A stretch of DNA of 20,839 nt from an uncultured archaeon (GTDB lineage: Archaea; Asgardarchaeota; Lokiarchaeia; Sigyniarchaeales; SOKP01). A program made the position numbers and the translations under genes. How positions within the stretch are numbered: the stretch's first letter is position 1; the number at the start of each line of letters is the position of its first letter. The stretch is from contig CAYLZE010000055.1 in NCBI GenBank assembly GCA_964388035.1, positions 11,070 to 31,908 on the forward strand, written 5' to 3'. The notes under the pieces are model-generated. The model saw nothing but the letters and a program-made list of their open reading frames with translations. It did no database searches and was not told the origin of the DNA. This document shows, one piece after another, positions 4,390 through 13,408 of the stretch.

Positions 4390-7300
4390 TTAGGCCATCA
4401 CCTTTTCCATTTTTTTTTCCTTTTCTTTTTTTTCGATTTTATCTCCCGTTTTCTTTAAGGGACCAAGCTGCTTGATTTGCTTCACGAAATCCGTGACTGC
4501 TTCAGAGAATCGTTTTCCCTCACTGGCGGATATCCATTCTAGTCTAAGACGGTCTTTATTTATCCCCACTTTTTCAAGAATATCTTTCAGTTCATTATAA
4601 CGCTGTAGCATATCGTAATTTCCCTCTAAATAGTGGCAATCTCCAATATGACAACCTCCAATGAATACACCATCCGCCCCTTCTAAGAATGCTTGTAATA
4701 TGAACCTTTTTGGAATTCTACCCGTGCACATGACTCTTATCGGGCGAATATTGGTGGGGTATTGAAAACGACTCACACCGCAAGTGTCTGCTCCCGCATA
4801 GCTGCACCAATTGCATAAGAACGCCACGATGCGGGGACGTTCATCTATGAAATCTCCTCGAACGGCTTCCCGAATCATCGGATAAAGCTGTTCATCAGCA
4901 AAGTGGCTCATCGTAATTGCTCCTGCAGGGCATGCTGCTGCACAGTCTCCACAACCTTTACAGAGCAAGGGGTTTGATTGAGATACCAAGATTTCATTAT
5001 CAAAATTCACACCTATGGCTCCAAAATTACACACCTCTTCACATTTTTGACATCCTATGCATAATGCGGGATTCACAACCGAGACGAGGGGCTCATTTTC
5101 CACTTCTCCTGAAATGAGCGGGATGAGAGCATGAGCTGCTGCCCCTCTCCCTTGAGATATCGAATCAGCAATTCCTTTGGGGCCATGACAAGTACCCGCC
5201 AGATAGATTCCATCCGTCGCAAAATCTACGGGACGCAGTTTCACGTGCGCTTCCAAGAAAAAGCCCTTTTGATCCCGAGCACATTTGATCATCTCCCCTA
5301 ATTTTTCCGTATCATTAGGTATTAACGGCGTGGATAGTATTACCCGATCCGCATTAATAGTGAGATCAATCTGAGTTAAAATATCTTTAACTTCCACGTT
5401 AAGACGATTATTCGCAACCTCTACAGTTGGATAGTCATTAAATCGAATATAATTGACATTCTCTCGCGCTTTCCAATAATAGGGTTCTTCATCGGTACCC
5501 ACCCTTATATCTCGATACAATACGTAAATGTTGGATCTGGGATAATTTTCTTTTACATATAACGCGTGTCGGATTGATTCCGAACAACAGATTAGGGAAC
5601 AATAAGTTACTCCATTACCACCCTCTGGTTGCCGAGAGCCGACGCAATGGATGAATACTAATGTTTCCCCATCCTTTAACTCATTATTTCTCAATTTTTC
5701 GGATAATTCGAGTTGAGTCATCACTTTATCTTCCAATCCCTTCTCGCCGTAATGATACCATCCCTCAGGTTTATACTCATGGGCGCCCGTAGCGGTGATG
5801 ATTACTCCGACATTTAAACTTACTTCATCACCTTTTAAATTGTTATTGACTGATACTTTAAAGTCCCCGATGGATCCTTTCACGTCCTTTACTTCGGAAT
5901 TTAGATATGTAGTGATTCGTTTTTCATCATGGAATTCTTTTATTTTTTTATTTAAAAAGTCAGCAGAGTCGATTCTCTCAAAATTAATCTTGTAAATGAG
6001 GTTTAATTGTCCTCCCAATTTATCTGTTTTTTCAACGAGGTGAACCTTGAATCCCTTTTTAGCAATTTCTAGGGCTGCACTAATTCCTGCGATTCCTCCT
6101 CCCACGACTAGAGCTTCGGGTACCACGCTTCCTTTAATTTTATATTCCGGCTTCAAAACTTGCGCTCGTGCAACACCCATGCGAATTAAATCCTTTGCCT
6201 TATCCGTGGCTTTTTCCGGTTCTTTCATGTGTACCCAAGAATCTAATTCCCGAATACTCACGAAGTTAAACAAGTATTCATTTAACCCTGCTTCCCGAAT
6301 AGTATGTTGAAATAATGGTTCATGAGTTCGAGGCGTGCAAGCAGCTACAACAACACGGTTTAAATTTAATTCTTCAATCTTTTCTTTTATAATATCTTGA
6401 GTTAGACTTGAACAGCTATACTTATTATGCATGGCAAATACTACTCCCGGAAGAGTCTTTGAATATTCCACAATTTCTGGAATGTTCATGTATCCCCCTA
6501 TATTAACTCCACACTCACATACGAACACTCCAATACGTGATTCATCATATTTAGTAATTGGTTTCAGAGCAGGGAGCTCTACCTTGGTTTCTTCCTTACT
6601 TAAGGGGGTAGCATGTAATGCAGCTAATGCAGCCGCCCCTCCTGCTTTTGCCACGGAATTTGCGATGTCATCGGGAGATTGACATGAACCTGTTACATAG
6701 ATGCCTTCTTTAGTAGAATGCGTGTCTTCAGTAGAATTTGTAGTTTTATAAAAACCTAATTCATTCTTTTCAATCCCTAAGATCTTAGCCAGCTCATCCG
6801 AGTCTGTTCTAGGAATAACCGCATTGGCCAATACCACCAAATCAAATCTATTAGTTTCCACTTCTCCCGTATCTAAATTTGCATGTTTAACCAATAATTC
6901 ATGTGTTTCAGGATCTTCCCGAACATCTCCCGGTATCCCATGGTAATATTTTAGTTTATACTCCTCTTTAGCACGCTCTATAAATTCCTCTTGATTCTTA
7001 CCAATAACTCTGGTATCATTATAAAAAATAGTTACTCGCGTATCTGGAGCGTGTTCTCTCGTAACTACCCCTTCTTTTGCCATGTACATGCAGCAAAACT
7101 TCGAACAATACGCACATAAGTCTTCATTTCTGGAACCAACGCAAGCTACAAAAGCAATCTCGTGGGCGTGTTCTCCATCAGAAGGCTTCAATAGTTGCCC
7201 TTCCGTAGGACCTGAAGCACTAAGCAACCTTTCATATTGCATGGCCGTGATCACATTGGGATACTCTCCGTAATGATATCGAGTAAGAATACTTGGATCC

Positions 7301-7902
7301 AAGAGATCATAGCCCGTAGCAACGATGATGGAGGCCACATCGTACTCAGCAATTTCATCTTTCATGTCAAAATTTATTGCTCCAGCTTCACATTCCTTCA
7401 AGCATAATTTACAGGCACCCTTCGTCAGGAATAAACAGCGATCTTTATCAATCGTTGCTTTTCTCGGAACCGCTTGCGGAAAGGGAATGTAAATGGCTGT
7501 CCTATTTCCCATCCCTTCTTCAAATTCATTCGGGATTTTTTTCATGGGACACTTCTCGGAGCACGCCCCGCATCCGGTACATTTTTCCGTGTCTACAAAT
7601 CGTGATTTTTTCAAAACTTTCACGTGAAAATCTCCCGCTTTTCCTGAAACTTCTTGTACTTCGGAATATGTTAATAATTCGATTCGTGGATGTCGAGCCA
7701 CCTCTACCATTTTAGGCGCCAGAATGCAAATACTACAATCCAGGGTTGGAAATGTTTTATCTAATTGAGCCATGCGCCCTCCAACCGAGGGAGTTTTTTC
7801 CACTAAAATGACGCGATATCCTTGGTCCCCTAAGGTCAGTGCGGATTCAATCCCTGAGATGCCACCGCCGATCACCATAATATTACTATTTTGCATAATC
7901 AT
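4390..7902 (-). CDS. hdrA: Tandem HdrA-HdrA-MvhD fusion flavoprotein (1170 aa)
   Basis: Two FAD Rossmann motifs (VIGGGISG; VVGGGIAG), DKTFPTLDCSIC, two CVGSR...CSxxCC clusters, ferredoxin motifs, and a C-terminal MvhD [2Fe-2S] domain (AFLCNWCSYAGAD, RVMCTGR, GGCHIGDCHY, LEWISASEG). Confidence 0.93.
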   Translation of the reverse strand: MIMQNSNIMVIGGGISGIESALTLGDQGYRVILVEKTPSVGGRMAQLDKTFPTLDCSICILAPKMVEVARHPRIELLTYSEVQEVSGKAGDFHVKVLKKSRFVDTEKCTGCGACSEKCPMKKIPNEFEEGMGNRTAIYIPFPQAVPRKATIDKDRCLFLTKGACKLCLKECEAGAINFDMKDEIAEYDVASIIVATGYDLLDPSILTRYHYGEYPNVITAMQYERLLSASGPTEGQLLKPSDGEHAHEIAFVACVGSRNEDLCAYCSKFCCMYMAKEGVVTREHAPDTRVTIFYNDTRVIGKNQEEFIERAKEEYKLKYYHGIPGDVREDPETHELLVKHANLDTGEVETNRFDLVVLANAVIPRTDSDELAKILGIEKNELGFYKTTNSTEDTHSTKEGIYVTGSCQSPDDIANSVAKAGGAAALAALHATPLSKEETKVELPALKPITKYDESRIGVFVCECGVNIGGYMNIPEIVEYSKTLPGVVFAMHNKYSCSSLTQDIIKEKIEELNLNRVVVAACTPRTHEPLFQHTIREAGLNEYLFNFVSIRELDSWVHMKEPEKATDKAKDLIRMGVARAQVLKPEYKIKGSVVPEALVVGGGIAGISAALEIAKKGFKVHLVEKTDKLGGQLNLIYKINFERIDSADFLNKKIKEFHDEKRITTYLNSEVKDVKGSIGDFKVSVNNNLKGDEVSLNVGVIITATGAHEYKPEGWYHYGEKGLEDKVMTQLELSEKLRNNELKDGETLVFIHCVGSRQPEGGNGVTYCSLICCSESIRHALYVKENYPRSNIYVLYRDIRVGTDEEPYYWKARENVNYIRFNDYPTVEVANNRLNVEVKDILTQIDLTINADRVILSTPLIPNDTEKLGEMIKCARDQKGFFLEAHVKLRPVDFATDGIYLAGTCHGPKGIADSISQGRGAAAHALIPLISGEVENEPLVSVVNPALCIGCQKCEEVCNFGAIGVNFDNEILVSQSNPLLCKGCGDCAAACPAGAITMSHFADEQLYPMIREAVRGDFIDERPRIVAFLCNWCSYAGADTCGVSRFQYPTNIRPIRVMCTGRIPKRFILQAFLEGADGVFIGGCHIGDCHYLEGNYDMLQRYNELKDILEKVGINKDRLRLEWISASEGKRFSEAVTDFVKQIKQLGPLKKTGDKIEKKEKEKKMEKVMA

Positions 7903-8540: not shown

Positions 8541-10118
8541 GTGAAAAAAAAAATGAATGGTAAGTATATAATTGCCCACGACCTTGGAACCACGGGCAAT
8601 AAAGCCGCAATCTTTGATTCCAAGCTGACATTAATTGCGGATGAGATGATAAAATATCCTCTTATCTATCCCAAACCTGGATGGGCAGAACAAAACGCCA
8701 TGGATTATTGGAATTCAGTCGTGAACACGACAAAAACCCTCATGCAAGCAAATAAAATCAATTCGGAGGACGTTCTTGCCCTGGTTTTTGATTGCCAAAT
8801 GAATTGTACCGTTCCCATCGATCAGGACGGAAATCCCTTAATGAATTGTATCAACTGGCTCGATACCAGAGCCGCTCAAACAACTCATAAATTCCGAAAA
8901 GGACCCATAAAAATCTCAGGATTTGGATTGAAAAATTTATTGATGTTTATTAAAATTACCGGAGGCGCTCCAGGAACGAATGGGAAGGATCCTATTGCCC
9001 ATATATTATGGATCAAAGACAATGAACCTGCAATCTATGACAAGACCTTCAAGTTTCTCAGTGTAAAGGACTTTGTAATTTTTAAATGTACTGAAAAAGC
9101 GGTTACTTCACGGGACTTGGGCAATACGTCGTGGTTGATGGATTCCAATCCGGGACAATTTGTCTGGTCGCCAAAAATTCTTGAAAAATTAAAAATAGAT
9201 AATGAAAAATTACCGGTAATTAAAAAATCCGTTGAAATTGCAGGAACCCTAACCGAAAAAGCAGCTAAAGAATTGGGATTAAAAACAGGAATCCCCGTGA
9301 TAGTAGGGTCGGGAGATCTGACTTCCGCTGCAATAGGTTCGGGAGCAATAAAGGATAATGAATTAATCGTTAATATAGGAACTTCCGACATGGTCGCCGC
9401 CCATACTCCTGATAGGATAAAAGATTTAATACATTACACGGGGTCCATTTGTTCTGCCCAAGATAAATATCTCTGCATTTCAAAGCAAGAAACGGGAGGG
9501 GCTTGTTTAGACTGGATTGTAGAACAATTATTTCCTTCTGAAAGGAAGAATTCTAGAGAAAAATTGGATGAAATTTATGAAGAAATTAATACAATGGTGG
9601 AAGGAGCTGAAGCGGGATCAAAAAACATGATCTTCACTCCTTGGCTGTTTGGAGAAAGAAGTCCCCTAAATGATTCGAGCGTGCGCGGTGGATTATATAA
9701 TCTGAGTCTTGATCAAAAAAGAGAAGATCTCCTTCGAGCCGTCTATGAAGGAGTTGCGTTTAATATTAAGTGGGCTCTACAGGTTGTAGAGAAATTAGTA
9801 GGGAAGGGAGAATCCATTAACTTTATTGGAGGTGGTGCGAAATCCCGGATTTGGGCCCAAATTCTGGCAGACGTGTTGGAGAGAAAAATTAACCGCATCT
9901 CAGAACCTAATTTAGCCGCAGTCAAAGGATCTGCCATCGTGGCTTTAGTAGGATTAGGTATTTTAAAAAGCTTTGAAGAAGCTATACCATTAATCAAGAT
10001 TGATGAATCTCTTACTCCTAATATTCAGAATAAACCAATTTATGACAAGCTATTTAAAGAATATCTCGCGACCTATAAAAGAAATAAAAAAATGTTCAAA
10101 ATTTTAAATCCTGAATAG
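8541..10118 (+). CDS. FGGY-family carbohydrate kinase (xylulokinase-like); ATG 8553 may be the true start
   Basis: AHDLGTTGNK, YPKPGWAEQ, WLDTRA, GSGD, FTPWLFGERSP, RAVYEGVAF, GGGAKSRIWAQILADVL motifs. Confidence 0.92.
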   Translation: MKKKMNGKYIIAHDLGTTGNKAAIFDSKLTLIADEMIKYPLIYPKPGWAEQNAMDYWNSVVNTTKTLMQANKINSEDVLALVFDCQMNCTVPIDQDGNPLMNCINWLDTRAAQTTHKFRKGPIKISGFGLKNLLMFIKITGGAPGTNGKDPIAHILWIKDNEPAIYDKTFKFLSVKDFVIFKCTEKAVTSRDLGNTSWLMDSNPGQFVWSPKILEKLKIDNEKLPVIKKSVEIAGTLTEKAAKELGLKTGIPVIVGSGDLTSAAIGSGAIKDNELIVNIGTSDMVAAHTPDRIKDLIHYTGSICSAQDKYLCISKQETGGACLDWIVEQLFPSERKNSREKLDEIYEEINTMVEGAEAGSKNMIFTPWLFGERSPLNDSSVRGGLYNLSLDQKREDLLRAVYEGVAFNIKWALQVVEKLVGKGESINFIGGGAKSRIWAQILADVLERKINRISEPNLAAVKGSAIVALVGLGILKSFEEAIPLIKIDESLTPNIQNKPIYDKLFKEYLATYKRNKKMFKILNPE

Positions 10119-10137
10119 ACACCAAGCTCAAATTCCT

Positions 10138-10162
10138 TGTTTTTTTCTTTTTCTTTAATTTT
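10138..10162 (+). terminator. T-rich tract, candidate archaeal intrinsic terminator after the kinase
   Basis: Oligo-T runs starting about 20 nt after the stop codon. Confidence 0.4.
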
Positions 10163-10329
10163 GTTAAAAGTTCTCCTTTTAGGTTTTCTTCATGAATACT
10201 TGCGAGAATATATCAAAGTAAATAGGGAATAAAAAGAAAAAAAGGAAAAATGATATTTTTATTACGCAAGGATTTCAAATATATATCATGGGAAACACAT
10301 GCTAAATCTAATAACGTATTTAAAGAAAT

Positions 10330-10348
10330 AAATCATAACCTATAATTA
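10330..10348 (+). promoter_or_regulatory. Candidate BRE/TATA (AAATCATAACCTATAATTA) for the MFS gene
   Basis: 12-bp identity with 8355-8366 followed by TATAATTA, about 60 bp upstream of ATG 10409. Confidence 0.45.
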
Positions 10349-10408
10349 GAATTTTAACAATTTAAAAAAAGAAAAAATAAAATAATAGAATATAATTGGA
10401 AGTTAACA

Positions 10409-11829
10409 ATGGTCGAAGAAAAACAGATTACCGAAAAAAAATATTCAAACTGGACCCATCTATCGTTTAATTTGATGATGTTCATGCTTCCCGCCACGTA
10501 AGGCAATATGCATTCTGCTTATTGCCCGTGATTGGCATATTCGGGACGCATTTCTTCTGGTACTACGAGACGGAAGTACTACTTCCGGTAATTTTCGTAG
10601 GAATTGCGAACGTTATTTATCTTTTATGGGACGCTTTTAATGATCCCCTTATCGGATATCTATCAGATAGATCGCACAATCGGTTATCGAAGAAATATGG
10701 AAGGCGATTCCCCTATATCGTCATAATGGGGGTGCCCACCATGCTTTCCATGATGCTTTTATTCATTCCCCCAATAACTAACGCTCAAATTAACCCTATC
10801 CCTGTTTTCTTATGGGCTGTTGCCATGTTAATCATTCATGAGACGGGATATACTACGGTAAGTTTAACAAGAGCGTTATATCCGGAGAAATTTCGATCTG
10901 ATTCAGAACGGCGGAAGAATGCGGGGATTGGCATGGTAATTTACAATATCGGCATGTTATGCGGTCTCGTGATTCCCATGATATTTGTCACTACGGGAGA
11001 TATCAACTCCTATTTTCTTGGTGCCATAATTTTAACGATTCCTTGTTTTATTACCTTTTTTCTGGGGATACCGGGAGTCAGAGAAGATAAAGAAATGATA
11101 GAACGTGATATCAACGAGGAGCGAGAGCCTTTCTTTAAAACCATGATTACAGTCTTAAAGAAGAAGAATTTTCGCGCCGTTATTGTCGTAATGATGTCTG
11201 TCCAGATGATTGGTGCCTGCATAATGGGTAGTGTTTATTATTACGTGTACTACATCCTATTGGAGCCCGCAGATTCGTCAGCGGACATATTATTCATGCT
11301 AGCTTGGTTCATTGCGGGAGTTGTATCTATACCTTTTTGGATGTTCATGGGTAAAAAAATCGGAAATCGAAAGCTGCAGATTTTAGCCTTAATCATGTAT
11401 AGTATCGCTATAATGCCCTTTCTTTTTATTCGAAGTCTCATTGGTGCGATTCTTGCAGCACTCGTGCTTGGGTTCATGATGGGAGCTAGTACATTCATCA
11501 GATATCCGCTATTTTCAGATTTAATAGATGAAGCCACCATAATGGATGGAAAACGCCAAGAAGGTATCTATCAAGGAGTGTTAGCATTTTTTGATCGATT
11601 CGGGATCCTCATACAGCCTATTATTTTTACCATCGTTCATCTCCTGACACGGTTTGATGCGACCCAAGCGGTTCAAACTCCCTTAGCTCAACAAGGAATA
11701 TTAGCAGCATTTACTTGGGTTCCAGCAAGCATCGCAATCATCGCTTGCCTTATCTTTTATAAATACTACGACTTGACGATAACACGAACTGAAGAAAATA
11801 AAATAAAACTGCATGAATTGAATTTATAA
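10409..11829 (+). CDS. GPH (MelB-like) MFS sugar transporter, predicted spliced: join(10409..10500,10533..11829), 462 aa
   Basis: WDAFNDPLIGYLSDR...YGRRFP, DLIDE...GKRQEGIY and YDLT motifs. Exon 1 reads MVEEKQITEKKYSNWTHLSFNLMMFMLPAT, and splicing continues YGIFGTHFFWYYETEV, giving a complete first TM helix. The track's TTG-10522 ORF lacks this N-terminus. Confidence 0.85.
10501..10532 (+). other. Candidate 32-nt bulge-helix-bulge (tRNA-type) intron in a protein-coding gene
   Basis: Central helix CACG(10495-98)/CGUG(10527-30); 3-nt bulges UAA(10499-501) and AUU(10531-33); inner stem GGCAAUA(10502-08)/UAUUGCC(10520-26). Cutting after the second nucleotide of each bulge removes the in-frame TAA, creates TAT and restores the frame. 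Confidence 0.82.
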
Positions 11830-11898
11830 TCTAATTTTAGCAACCTTTTTTTTCTTTTTATCCATTTCTCTTTATTTTAGAGTTCAACCTTAGAAAAA

Positions 11899-12393
11899 TT
11901 ACTCATGATGCTCACATGCTCCGTCACATCCAAAAATAAACGGATTAACCACGGGTTCGGGGTCCAATCCTTTTTCTATCACTTTTAAAGTAAAAGTAAG
12001 CGTCTTTCCCGCCCCCGGATGGTTCATATCCACGATCACGAAATCTTCATCGATTAATCGGATCCAACCGGGTGAACCCATACCATTCGGCCCTATAACT
12101 TCAATCTGGTTCCCTATTTTTAGATTGTGGTCTTGGGCTATTTGAGAGATTGGGATTTTTTCTAGCAAGAGGGGATCAAACTCTCCATATGCTTTTTCTG
12201 GGGGAAGAATTAGCTGTTTTTCCTCTCCGACTTCCATTCCAATTAAAGACTCATCCAAGCTTTTTAAAACCTGTCTCGTTCCAACTTGTACTTTGATCGG
12301 ACCGCCTCGCATATCAGAAGAATCAAAAATTGTACCATCTTCCAAGGTTATTTTAAATTGTAATTTAATAATATCGCCATTTTCTACAGGCAT
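11899..12393 (-). CDS. slyD: FKBP-type peptidyl-prolyl isomerase, SlyD-like
   Basis: EDGTIFDSS, GMEVGEEK, LPPEKAYG, VDMNHPGAGKTLTF motifs, IF-domain insert and a short Cys/His tail (CDGACEHHE). Confidence 0.9.
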   Translation of the reverse strand: MPVENGDIIKLQFKITLEDGTIFDSSDMRGGPIKVQVGTRQVLKSLDESLIGMEVGEEKQLILPPEKAYGEFDPLLLEKIPISQIAQDHNLKIGNQIEVIGPNGMGSPGWIRLIDEDFVIVDMNHPGAGKTLTFTLKVIEKGLDPEPVVNPFIFGCDGACEHHE

Positions 12394-12724
12394 GACAATC
12401 CACCTATTTCATTTAAAATACAAATATATAAAAGAGTTTTGATTATAAATTTATTTTTTTTATAGATTACAAGAGAAAAAGAAGTCCTATTTTTATATCT
12501 TAACCGCGAGGGAATAATAGTTATAAGAAAAAGATCATCAAATTAAGTATCAAATTCGCTGTCTTTCGTTCAGAAATAACGCGAATGGGGATTTTTTGGA
12601 TCTAAAAACGAAATTATAAGTTAAATGTACAATTGCATAATACATTGATTTATATACTCATAACGCGATTTTTTTAATATAGTAAAATTAGTTTGGTATT
12701 CTAAGCTCACGGGTTTGAAAAAAA

Positions 12725-13408
12725 TTGAAAGTCGTGATTAGTGGCCCCCTACAAGCGGGAAAATCCAGCTATATTAAACTTCTCGATCCTAATGCCTTAA
12801 ATATTGAAGCGGAAAGCAGAAGATATAACTGTAAAATAACGGTAGCCATGGACATGGGTAATATCAAGCTAAATGGATTTGAAGTTCATTTATTTGGCAC
12901 GCCGGGTCTGTTACATTTTTCGGTCATGCGCGACGTTATTACCCAAGGAGCCGATGGAATAGTTTTCATATTCGATGCTGCCAATCCTGACAAAGATAAA
13001 GATGCAATCGTAATCTTGAATGCTTTAAGAAAAATGATTGAAACGAATACCCCTATCGTTTTCTTGGCAAATAAGCAAGATATAAAAGGTGCTAGAAGCC
13101 CGGAAGTGATTAGAGCACAAAATTCCTTACCCCATAATTCCGTAATTTTTCCCTCCAGCACGAAAACTAAATTGAATATTCATAAGTCCATGAAGCATCT
13201 CATAAACATGATTTATGATAATTATGCAAGCCTTCTTGAAATTCTACGAAATTACGAAAATGATGTAAAAGGATTAGCAAAAAAATTGGAAAAAAATAAG
13301 ACCCAAATGCGAGATTTTTTGAATAACATGGAAGTCAAGCGCTTCATTGAGATTGACCGAATCAAGCGACGTTATAAGGTTAGGGAAGGTCTTAAAAATT
13401 TGACCTAA
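12725..13408 (+). CDS. Small GTPase (MglA/CvnD-like) with a C-terminal winged-helix-like domain
   Basis: G1 GPLQAGKSS, G2 region ITVAMDMG, G3 FGTPGL, G4 NKQD, G5-like SSTK; about 65-aa C-terminal extension with an HTH-wing pattern; TTG start. Confidence 0.85.
   Translation: MKVVISGPLQAGKSSYIKLLDPNALNIEAESRRYNCKITVAMDMGNIKLNGFEVHLFGTPGLLHFSVMRDVITQGADGIVFIFDAANPDKDKDAIVILNALRKMIETNTPIVFLANKQDIKGARSPEVIRAQNSLPHNSVIFPSSTKTKLNIHKSMKHLINMIYDNYASLLEILRNYENDVKGLAKKLEKNKTQMRDFLNNMEVKRFIEIDRIKRRYKVREGLKNLT

Follow-up and report, generated by a model that had tools for sequence, protein, structure and literature searches.

Protein-catalyzed splicing of mRNA without a spliceosome is familiar from the eukaryotic HAC1 and XBP1 messages, from which a small frame-shifting intron is removed by a protein endonuclease, Ire1, and an RtcB-type ligase. 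The closest described archaeal case is the bulge-helix-bulge (BHB) intron in the cbf5 pre-mRNA of Crenarchaeota (Desulfurococcales and Sulfolobales; Watanabe 2002; Yokobori 2009, PMC2738675), and in the literature searched, splicing of the EndA type within an archaeal coding sequence is reported for cbf5 only (PMC2738675, PMC7714728). The more recent of these two studies (PMC7714728, 2020) names no earlier example besides cbf5 and describes, in addition, a BHB intron in the 5' untranslated region (UTR) of the Haloferax volcanii HVO_1309 mRNA, an archaeal EndA substrate confirmed in vivo and in vitro. Asgard tRNA genes, as described in PMC5829648 and in a 2026 preprint on Asgard tRNA introns (bioRxiv 10.64898/2026.10.13.758758), are heavily interrupted by introns with hBHBh' and relaxed HBh' motifs that are cut by EndA; in the text searched, the preprint makes no mention of mRNA introns. 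Here, we describe a 20,839-nucleotide (nt) stretch of DNA (hereafter, the window) from a Lokiarchaeia-type Asgard archaeon, in which 32 nt at positions 10501–10532 interrupt the coding sequence of a GPH/MFS_2 sugar transporter and, in our judgment, probably constitute a tRNA-type BHB intron.

The frame that opens at ATG 10409 on the + strand runs for 30 codons to a TAA stop at 10499–10501, and a second + frame extends from 10522 to 11829 (435 residues from a TTG); the break between them, pointed out in a first-pass annotation of the window made from the sequence alone, is borne out by the list of open reading frames (ORFs). The long ORF matches the Pfam family MFS_2 over profile positions 16–423 of 427 (E = 4e-52), about 15 N-terminal profile positions being absent from it. 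Its close relatives, more than 30 in number and annotated as MFS transporters of Promethearchaeota or Lokiarchaeota, are 459–466 residues long, and most have exactly 462. Scanned alone, the 30 residues encoded upstream (exon 1) give no Pfam match, and they are collinear, residue for residue, with the N termini of the 462-residue orthologues, comprising the N terminus and the first half of transmembrane segment (TM) 1. When 10501–10532 is deleted (i.e., when 10409–10500 is joined to 10533–11829), translation of the product gives the 462-residue protein that the first-pass annotation had predicted, reading ...MLPATYGIFGTHFFWYYETE. This protein aligns with its relatives without a gap, including across PATYG; at the junction it reads FNLMMFMLPATYGIFGTHFFWYYETE, compared with FNLMMFMLPATYGMFGTHFFWYYETE in the 462-residue orthologue P0002, to which exon 2 is 75% identical.

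The boundaries of the insert were fixed by scoring all 805 stop-free, frame-restoring deletions starting at 10470–10534 against five orthologues. The deletion of 10501–10532 scores highest and is the only one of the 805 that produces the conserved Tyr, with shifts of 1–3 nt giving Phe or Ile. The BHB rule (a cut after the second base of each bulge), applied without adjustment as in the first-pass annotation, specifies this same deletion, that is, the one that best restores collinearity with the orthologues and yields a gap-free 462-residue protein. The contig that carries P0002 (L059) shares its gene order with the window (a HdrA/FlpD-like protein of 1170 residues, FGGY kinase, MFS, FKBP, and Ras-like GTPase); P0002 is therefore a true orthologue. 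In a DNA alignment of the window with the L059 orthologue and a same-genus orthologue, the interruption appears as a single clean 32-column gap at 10501–10532 with conserved flanks (CCCGCCACGTA followed by TGGCAT after the insert in the window, CCCGCCACTTA-TGGCAT in the orthologue). Intron-less alleles thus exist in both the syntenic and the same-genus orthologue, uninterrupted at the exact base, and the alignments confirm that the transporter gene is interrupted by a 32-nt insert at exactly 10501–10532.

All the BHB parts that had been proposed for the RNA across the insert (the central helix CACG/CGUG, the bulges UAA and AUU, the 7-bp inner stem, and its cap) are present, with the strands of the inner stem at 10502–10508 and 10520–10526 (Table 1); the closing pair C10494-G10534 that was proposed along with them can form but carries no weight, its pair probability being 0.006. 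The core, with CACG/CGUG between UAA and AUU, has the topology of the genome's own tRNA introns. Its h' stem has 7 bp; it departs from the strict hBHBh' form in that the outer helix h has one C-G pair, and because this outer helix is a single weak pair, the motif is, on the predicted fold, of the relaxed HBh' form. Scored as a four-pair central helix H plus an h' of at least six pairs at fixed position and length, a motif of such stringency occurs in the genome about 1e-4 times per position-length pair (28,880 matches over 2 × 5.47 Mb × 26 lengths), and the transporter motif coincides with the single deletion of the 805 that was picked by homology.

The genome (5.47 Mb, 96.7% complete, a metagenome-assembled genome [MAG] of 211 contigs with 7% contamination) encodes the enzymes that such an intron would call for, namely two EndA genes (PF01974; C146 and C33) and one RtcB gene (PF01139; C23). 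The PDB relatives of the two paralogues are EndA chains; nearest to one of the two are 3p1z_B, 3ajv_B, and 2zyz_B from Aeropyrum and Pyrobaculum, which we take to be catalytic subunits, and the other paralogue is more divergent. Two EndA paralogues in one genome are consistent with an (alpha-beta)2 enzyme, the architecture described for Asgard EndA, which has an L1 loop, a feature associated with broad specificity that extends to relaxed BHB motifs; the relaxed HBh' form still lies within the family for (alpha-beta)2 and epsilon2 EndAs (PMC5829648). The tRNA genes of the genome are themselves interrupted: 15 of the 22 tRNAs detected by ARAGORN carry introns, many of which are 23–32 nt long, and several have the same core as the transporter intron (e.g., tRNA-Met, CTCA TA/G ... 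TGAG AT/A, where slashes mark the cuts). A count of 22 tRNA genes in a genome of this completeness implies that many tRNAs were probably missed, owing to multiple or non-canonical introns.

From these elements, we infer EndA cleavage and RtcB ligation of the transporter pre-mRNA. CACG, among the last bases of exon 1, would form a helix with CGUG close to the 3' end of the intron, with UAA and AUU bulging out on either side of this helix and the 7-bp intron hairpin stacked on it; a two-subunit EndA would then cut each bulge after its second base, and RtcB would join ...ACG UA to U GGC..., so that the Tyr31 codon is formed, the UAA stop disappears, and the frame is restored. The predicted spliced junction joins GCCACGUA to UGGCAUAUUC (also given as GCCACGTA to TGGCATATTC), and the predicted junction of a circular intron joins ...CCCGTGAT to AGGCAATA.... 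Only the spliced mRNA would encode the complete 12-TM, 462-residue transporter, the unspliced message yielding a 30-residue peptide that ends at the bulge UAA, and the mRNA must very probably be spliced to give a normal protein. The arrangement of a stop codon right after a possible take-off position, followed by a stable hairpin, would also suit translational read-through, in which the ribosome bypasses the hairpin (as in T4 gene 60) or shifts frame and the RNA is never spliced. However, no landing codon matches the take-off ACG, and a simple frameshift cannot skip 32 nt. Since the Tyr codon exists only once TA and T are joined across the 32 nt, we reject bypassing and frameshifting as scarcely credible.

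Loose motif scans of the genome combined with ORF-joining logic return equal numbers for the real topology and its mirror image (7180/7234, 3517/3487, 1743/1702, and 321/306); because co-directional gene boundaries swamp the signal, ORF logic alone is unable to provide a census of introns. A census based on homology, which combined a tblastn screen that looked for split genes without using the motif and a test for paralogues spanning the junction, recovered the transporter intron and at least six more inserts of 29–32 nt with the same geometry (Table 1). The tblastn screen itself yielded few loci and independently found the C50 and C66 introns; the transporter intron was missed by this screen because exon 1 is only 30 residues long. 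For five of the six further introns (C66 was left out), the two exons were scanned separately against Pfam, and in both genes in which one profile reaches both exon ends (NAD synthase and FGGY kinase) the profile continues exactly across the rule-predicted junction. The hairpin sequences differ among all these introns, and in each the 4 nt preceding the 3' bulge are complementary to its own upstream exon; the first intron base is A in five of the six further inserts, and all six end in AA. The nadE orthologues in 16 related genomes are all uninterrupted, and the NAD synthase intron is therefore lineage specific, like that of the transporter. Finally, the genome's only match to pyrG (CTP synthase; G000:C37:~552–653, + strand) is split over two frames that, by reading of the sequence, are joined as DFG/KYERFL when 31 nt are removed; in a BHB fitted to this insert by hand, the central helix is only G-U-rich. 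The transporter intron apparently belongs to a set spread over several genes of one genome, and the inference made in the first-pass annotation, that mRNA splicing of the EndA type acts on ordinary metabolic genes in this lineage, fits the data and is supported by the boundaries, the encoded enzymes, and the same geometry in other metabolic genes. An assembly or sequencing artefact, which would mean that the organism's own genome lacks the 32 nt, could be argued from the 211 contigs and 7% contamination of the MAG and from the fact that the only independent, 100%-identical metagenome contig covers residues 166–435 and not the insert. We consider it very unlikely, as an artefact would not give a structured 32-nt BHB hairpin at codon-exact boundaries, and do so repeatedly, on other contigs and with different sequences.

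Among the orthologues found by protein search in 40 related genomes, none is interrupted, and four metagenome loci show no interruption at the intron site, the 100%-identical one being without its N terminus. A scan of 185,579 species genomes with exact or degenerate patterns gave no further copy of the intron, and a blastn-short search of the whole of its own genome gave a single occurrence and otherwise chance 11- to 14-mers, one of which, the 11-mer AGGCAATATGC, falls within the region of the uL16 insert on C35, though not at the equivalent position, and was judged coincidental. A copy of a repeat or mobile element was rejected, the insert being unique in its own genome. Within the set of genomes searched, the putative intron is thus restricted to this species, and so it was gained on this lineage. 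TATTGCC-CGTG, which makes up its 3' half, repeats the local CACG..GGCAATA in inverted orientation, and its 5' end, GGCAATAT, resembles by eye the start of exon 2, GGCATAT, which hints at an origin by local inverted duplication, not by transposition. At the third (synonymous) base of the Thr codon ACG, the window has G10498, which pairs with C10527 in helix H, and the syntenic orthologue without the intron has T; as a single observation, this difference is only suggestive.

Several results weigh against the reading of the insert as a functional intron. The outer exon-exon helix amounts to the one improbable pair mentioned above. In the unconstrained minimum free energy (MFE) fold, at −24.5 kcal/mol, the exons instead form a competing pairing, GCCA/UGGC, although constraining the fold to the BHB, which speaks for the BHB core, costs only 0.3 kcal/mol (−24.2 kcal/mol); with a weak outer helix and a competing pairing, recognition would need an EndA of broad specificity. 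The intron is missing from all orthologues examined, so there is neither covariation nor evidence of long-term retention. In the census, the excess of paralogue-supported motifs in the real over the mirror topology is modest (12 versus 5). The genome also holds 42 or more MFS_2 matches, so loss of this transporter would be tolerated. The last point favors a recent disabling insertion, a hairpin produced by replication slippage or inverted duplication that would make the gene a young pseudogene with an incidental BHB shape; the species specificity of the insert speaks for it as well, and the inverted copy TATTGCC-CGTG and the likeness of GGCAATAT to GGCATAT could be the trace of a local inverted duplication. 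Yet each bulge sits at precisely the place where cleavage by the EndA rule is needed to regenerate the conserved Tyr codon, the one solution in 805, and the remaining coding sequence of 431 codons has no further break and is 75% identical to the orthologue. Moreover, inserts of the same geometry occur in unrelated genes with exact Pfam continuity, and random disabling insertions would not all look so; the sole pyrG is also among the interrupted genes. A pseudogene is on balance unlikely, although it keeps some weight for the transporter gene itself in view of the MFS_2 matches and the species-specific intron.

As a spliced intron, the element at 10501–10532 resembles the cbf5 intron in being short, of the BHB type, within a coding sequence, frame-disrupting, and subject to lineage-specific gain or loss. 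The cbf5 intron is removed by the tRNA-splicing endonuclease and ligase, and the same removal is suggested here by the sequence. The cbf5 family is defined by its gene, a conserved site, and its occurrence in Desulfurococcales and Sulfolobales; here, the host gene is MFS_2/GPH and the genome is of the Promethearchaeota/Lokiarchaeota type, so that an RNA pseudouridine synthase of Crenarchaeota stands against a sugar transporter of an Asgard archaeon. Unlike the cbf5 intron, the transporter intron also has the relaxed HBh' form and has counterparts in unrelated genes of the same genome. Judged from sequence, it is an intron of the same kind in a new phylum and a metabolic gene, which would work like the cbf5 intron and is not orthologous to it. 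With archaeal pre-tRNA introns it shares the core geometry, the cut rule, the size seen in this genome's tRNA introns (∼23–32 nt), and presumably the enzymes, but the host RNA is an mRNA with no tRNA body, and whereas the anticodon stem closes the 3' bulge in pre-tRNAs, no stable exon-exon helix does so in the transporter. The HVO_1309 intron is likewise an mRNA substrate of EndA, as predicted for the transporter, but it lies in an untranslated leader and its removal is not needed for the reading frame. HAC1/XBP1 splicing differs in its nuclease, Ire1, and in its RNA motif of twin 7-nt loops and is thus analogous, not homologous, at the recognition step.

The upstream gene listed in Table 1, a sugar kinase in the same orientation as the transporter, likely forms a sugar-uptake pair with it. 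The block at window positions 8541–13408 (FGGY kinase, GPH transporter, FKBP on the opposite strand, and a Ras/Arf-like small GTPase) is kept in L059, a Logan-assembly contig. The 1170-residue HdrA-like/FlpD fusion protein is encoded at window positions 4390–7902 on the − strand; HdrA-like/FlpD paralogues at G000:C18:19610–27284 (+ strand) show extra segments of 8–11 nt and 38–47 nt between collinear tblastn high-scoring segment pairs, which could be selenocysteine codons, frameshifts, or further inserts.

Table 1. Features of the transporter locus and further putative introns. Positions without a prefix are those of the window; positions with a C prefix lie elsewhere in the genome.
Feature	Position	Strand	Remarks
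Exon 1, GPH/MFS_2 transporter	10409–10500	+	30 codons plus TA (first two bases of the Tyr31 codon)
Putative 32-nt BHB-type intron	10501–10532	+	AGGCAATATGCATTCTGCTTATTGCCCGTGAT; gap in orthologues; best deletion; unique in genome
Exon 2	10533–11829	+	T completes the Tyr codon, then 431 codons; stop 11827–11829
Central helix H, 5' strand CACG (exon 1)	10495–10498	+	pairs with 10527–10530
Central helix H, 3' strand CGUG (intron)	10527–10530	+	four Watson-Crick pairs, pair probabilities 0.22–0.37
5' bulge UAA (also the in-frame stop)	10499–10501	+	predicted cut after 10500; agrees with homology
3' bulge AUU	10531–10533	+	predicted cut after 10532; agrees with homology; followed by one weak closing pair
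Inner hairpin h'	10502–10526	+	7-bp stem GGCAAUA/UAUUGCC, apical GCA-UUC-UGC mini-stem; in MFE and centroid folds
NAD synthase, putative intron	C45:19136–19165	+	NAD_synthase profile 143/144, exact continuity
FGGY kinase, putative intron	C149:3761–3790	−	FGGY_N profile 78/79, exact continuity
E2-like (UQ_con), putative intron	C38:34333–34362	+	exon 1 to profile position 62, exon 2 from 68 (approximate)
Zn-ADH, putative intron	C50:19070–19098	+	exon 2 from ADH_N position 15; exon 1 no match
Nucleoside-phosphorylase-like, putative intron	C32:9825–9854	−	exon 2 from Glycos_transf_3 position 11; exon 1 matches the N-terminal bundle domain only
Further gene, putative intron	C66:9415–9446	+	same BHB geometry
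FGGY sugar-kinase gene, upstream	8541–10118	+	same orientation as transporter; Pfam FGGY_N and FGGY_C; synteny marker

Taken together, we lean toward a lineage-specific spread of tRNA-type micro-introns (∼29–33 nt, relaxed HBh') into many ordinary genes, such as transporters, kinases, NAD synthase, and pyrG, with splicing routinely needed before translation and introns that may arise de novo by local inverted duplication rather than by transposition. Standard gene callers truncate or split such genes, as in the public gene call at the transporter locus, a truncated 367-residue fragment (P0001). The transporter intron and the others found with it are concrete, testable substrates for Asgard EndA. 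If the reading is true for several metabolic genes, protein-catalyzed mRNA splicing would be more than a one-gene curiosity; there would be interrupted protein genes in the lineage closest to eukaryotes, how splicing stays ahead of coupled translation would become a question, and enzymatic mRNA splicing would be a routine prerequisite for translation in a close prokaryotic relative of eukaryotes.
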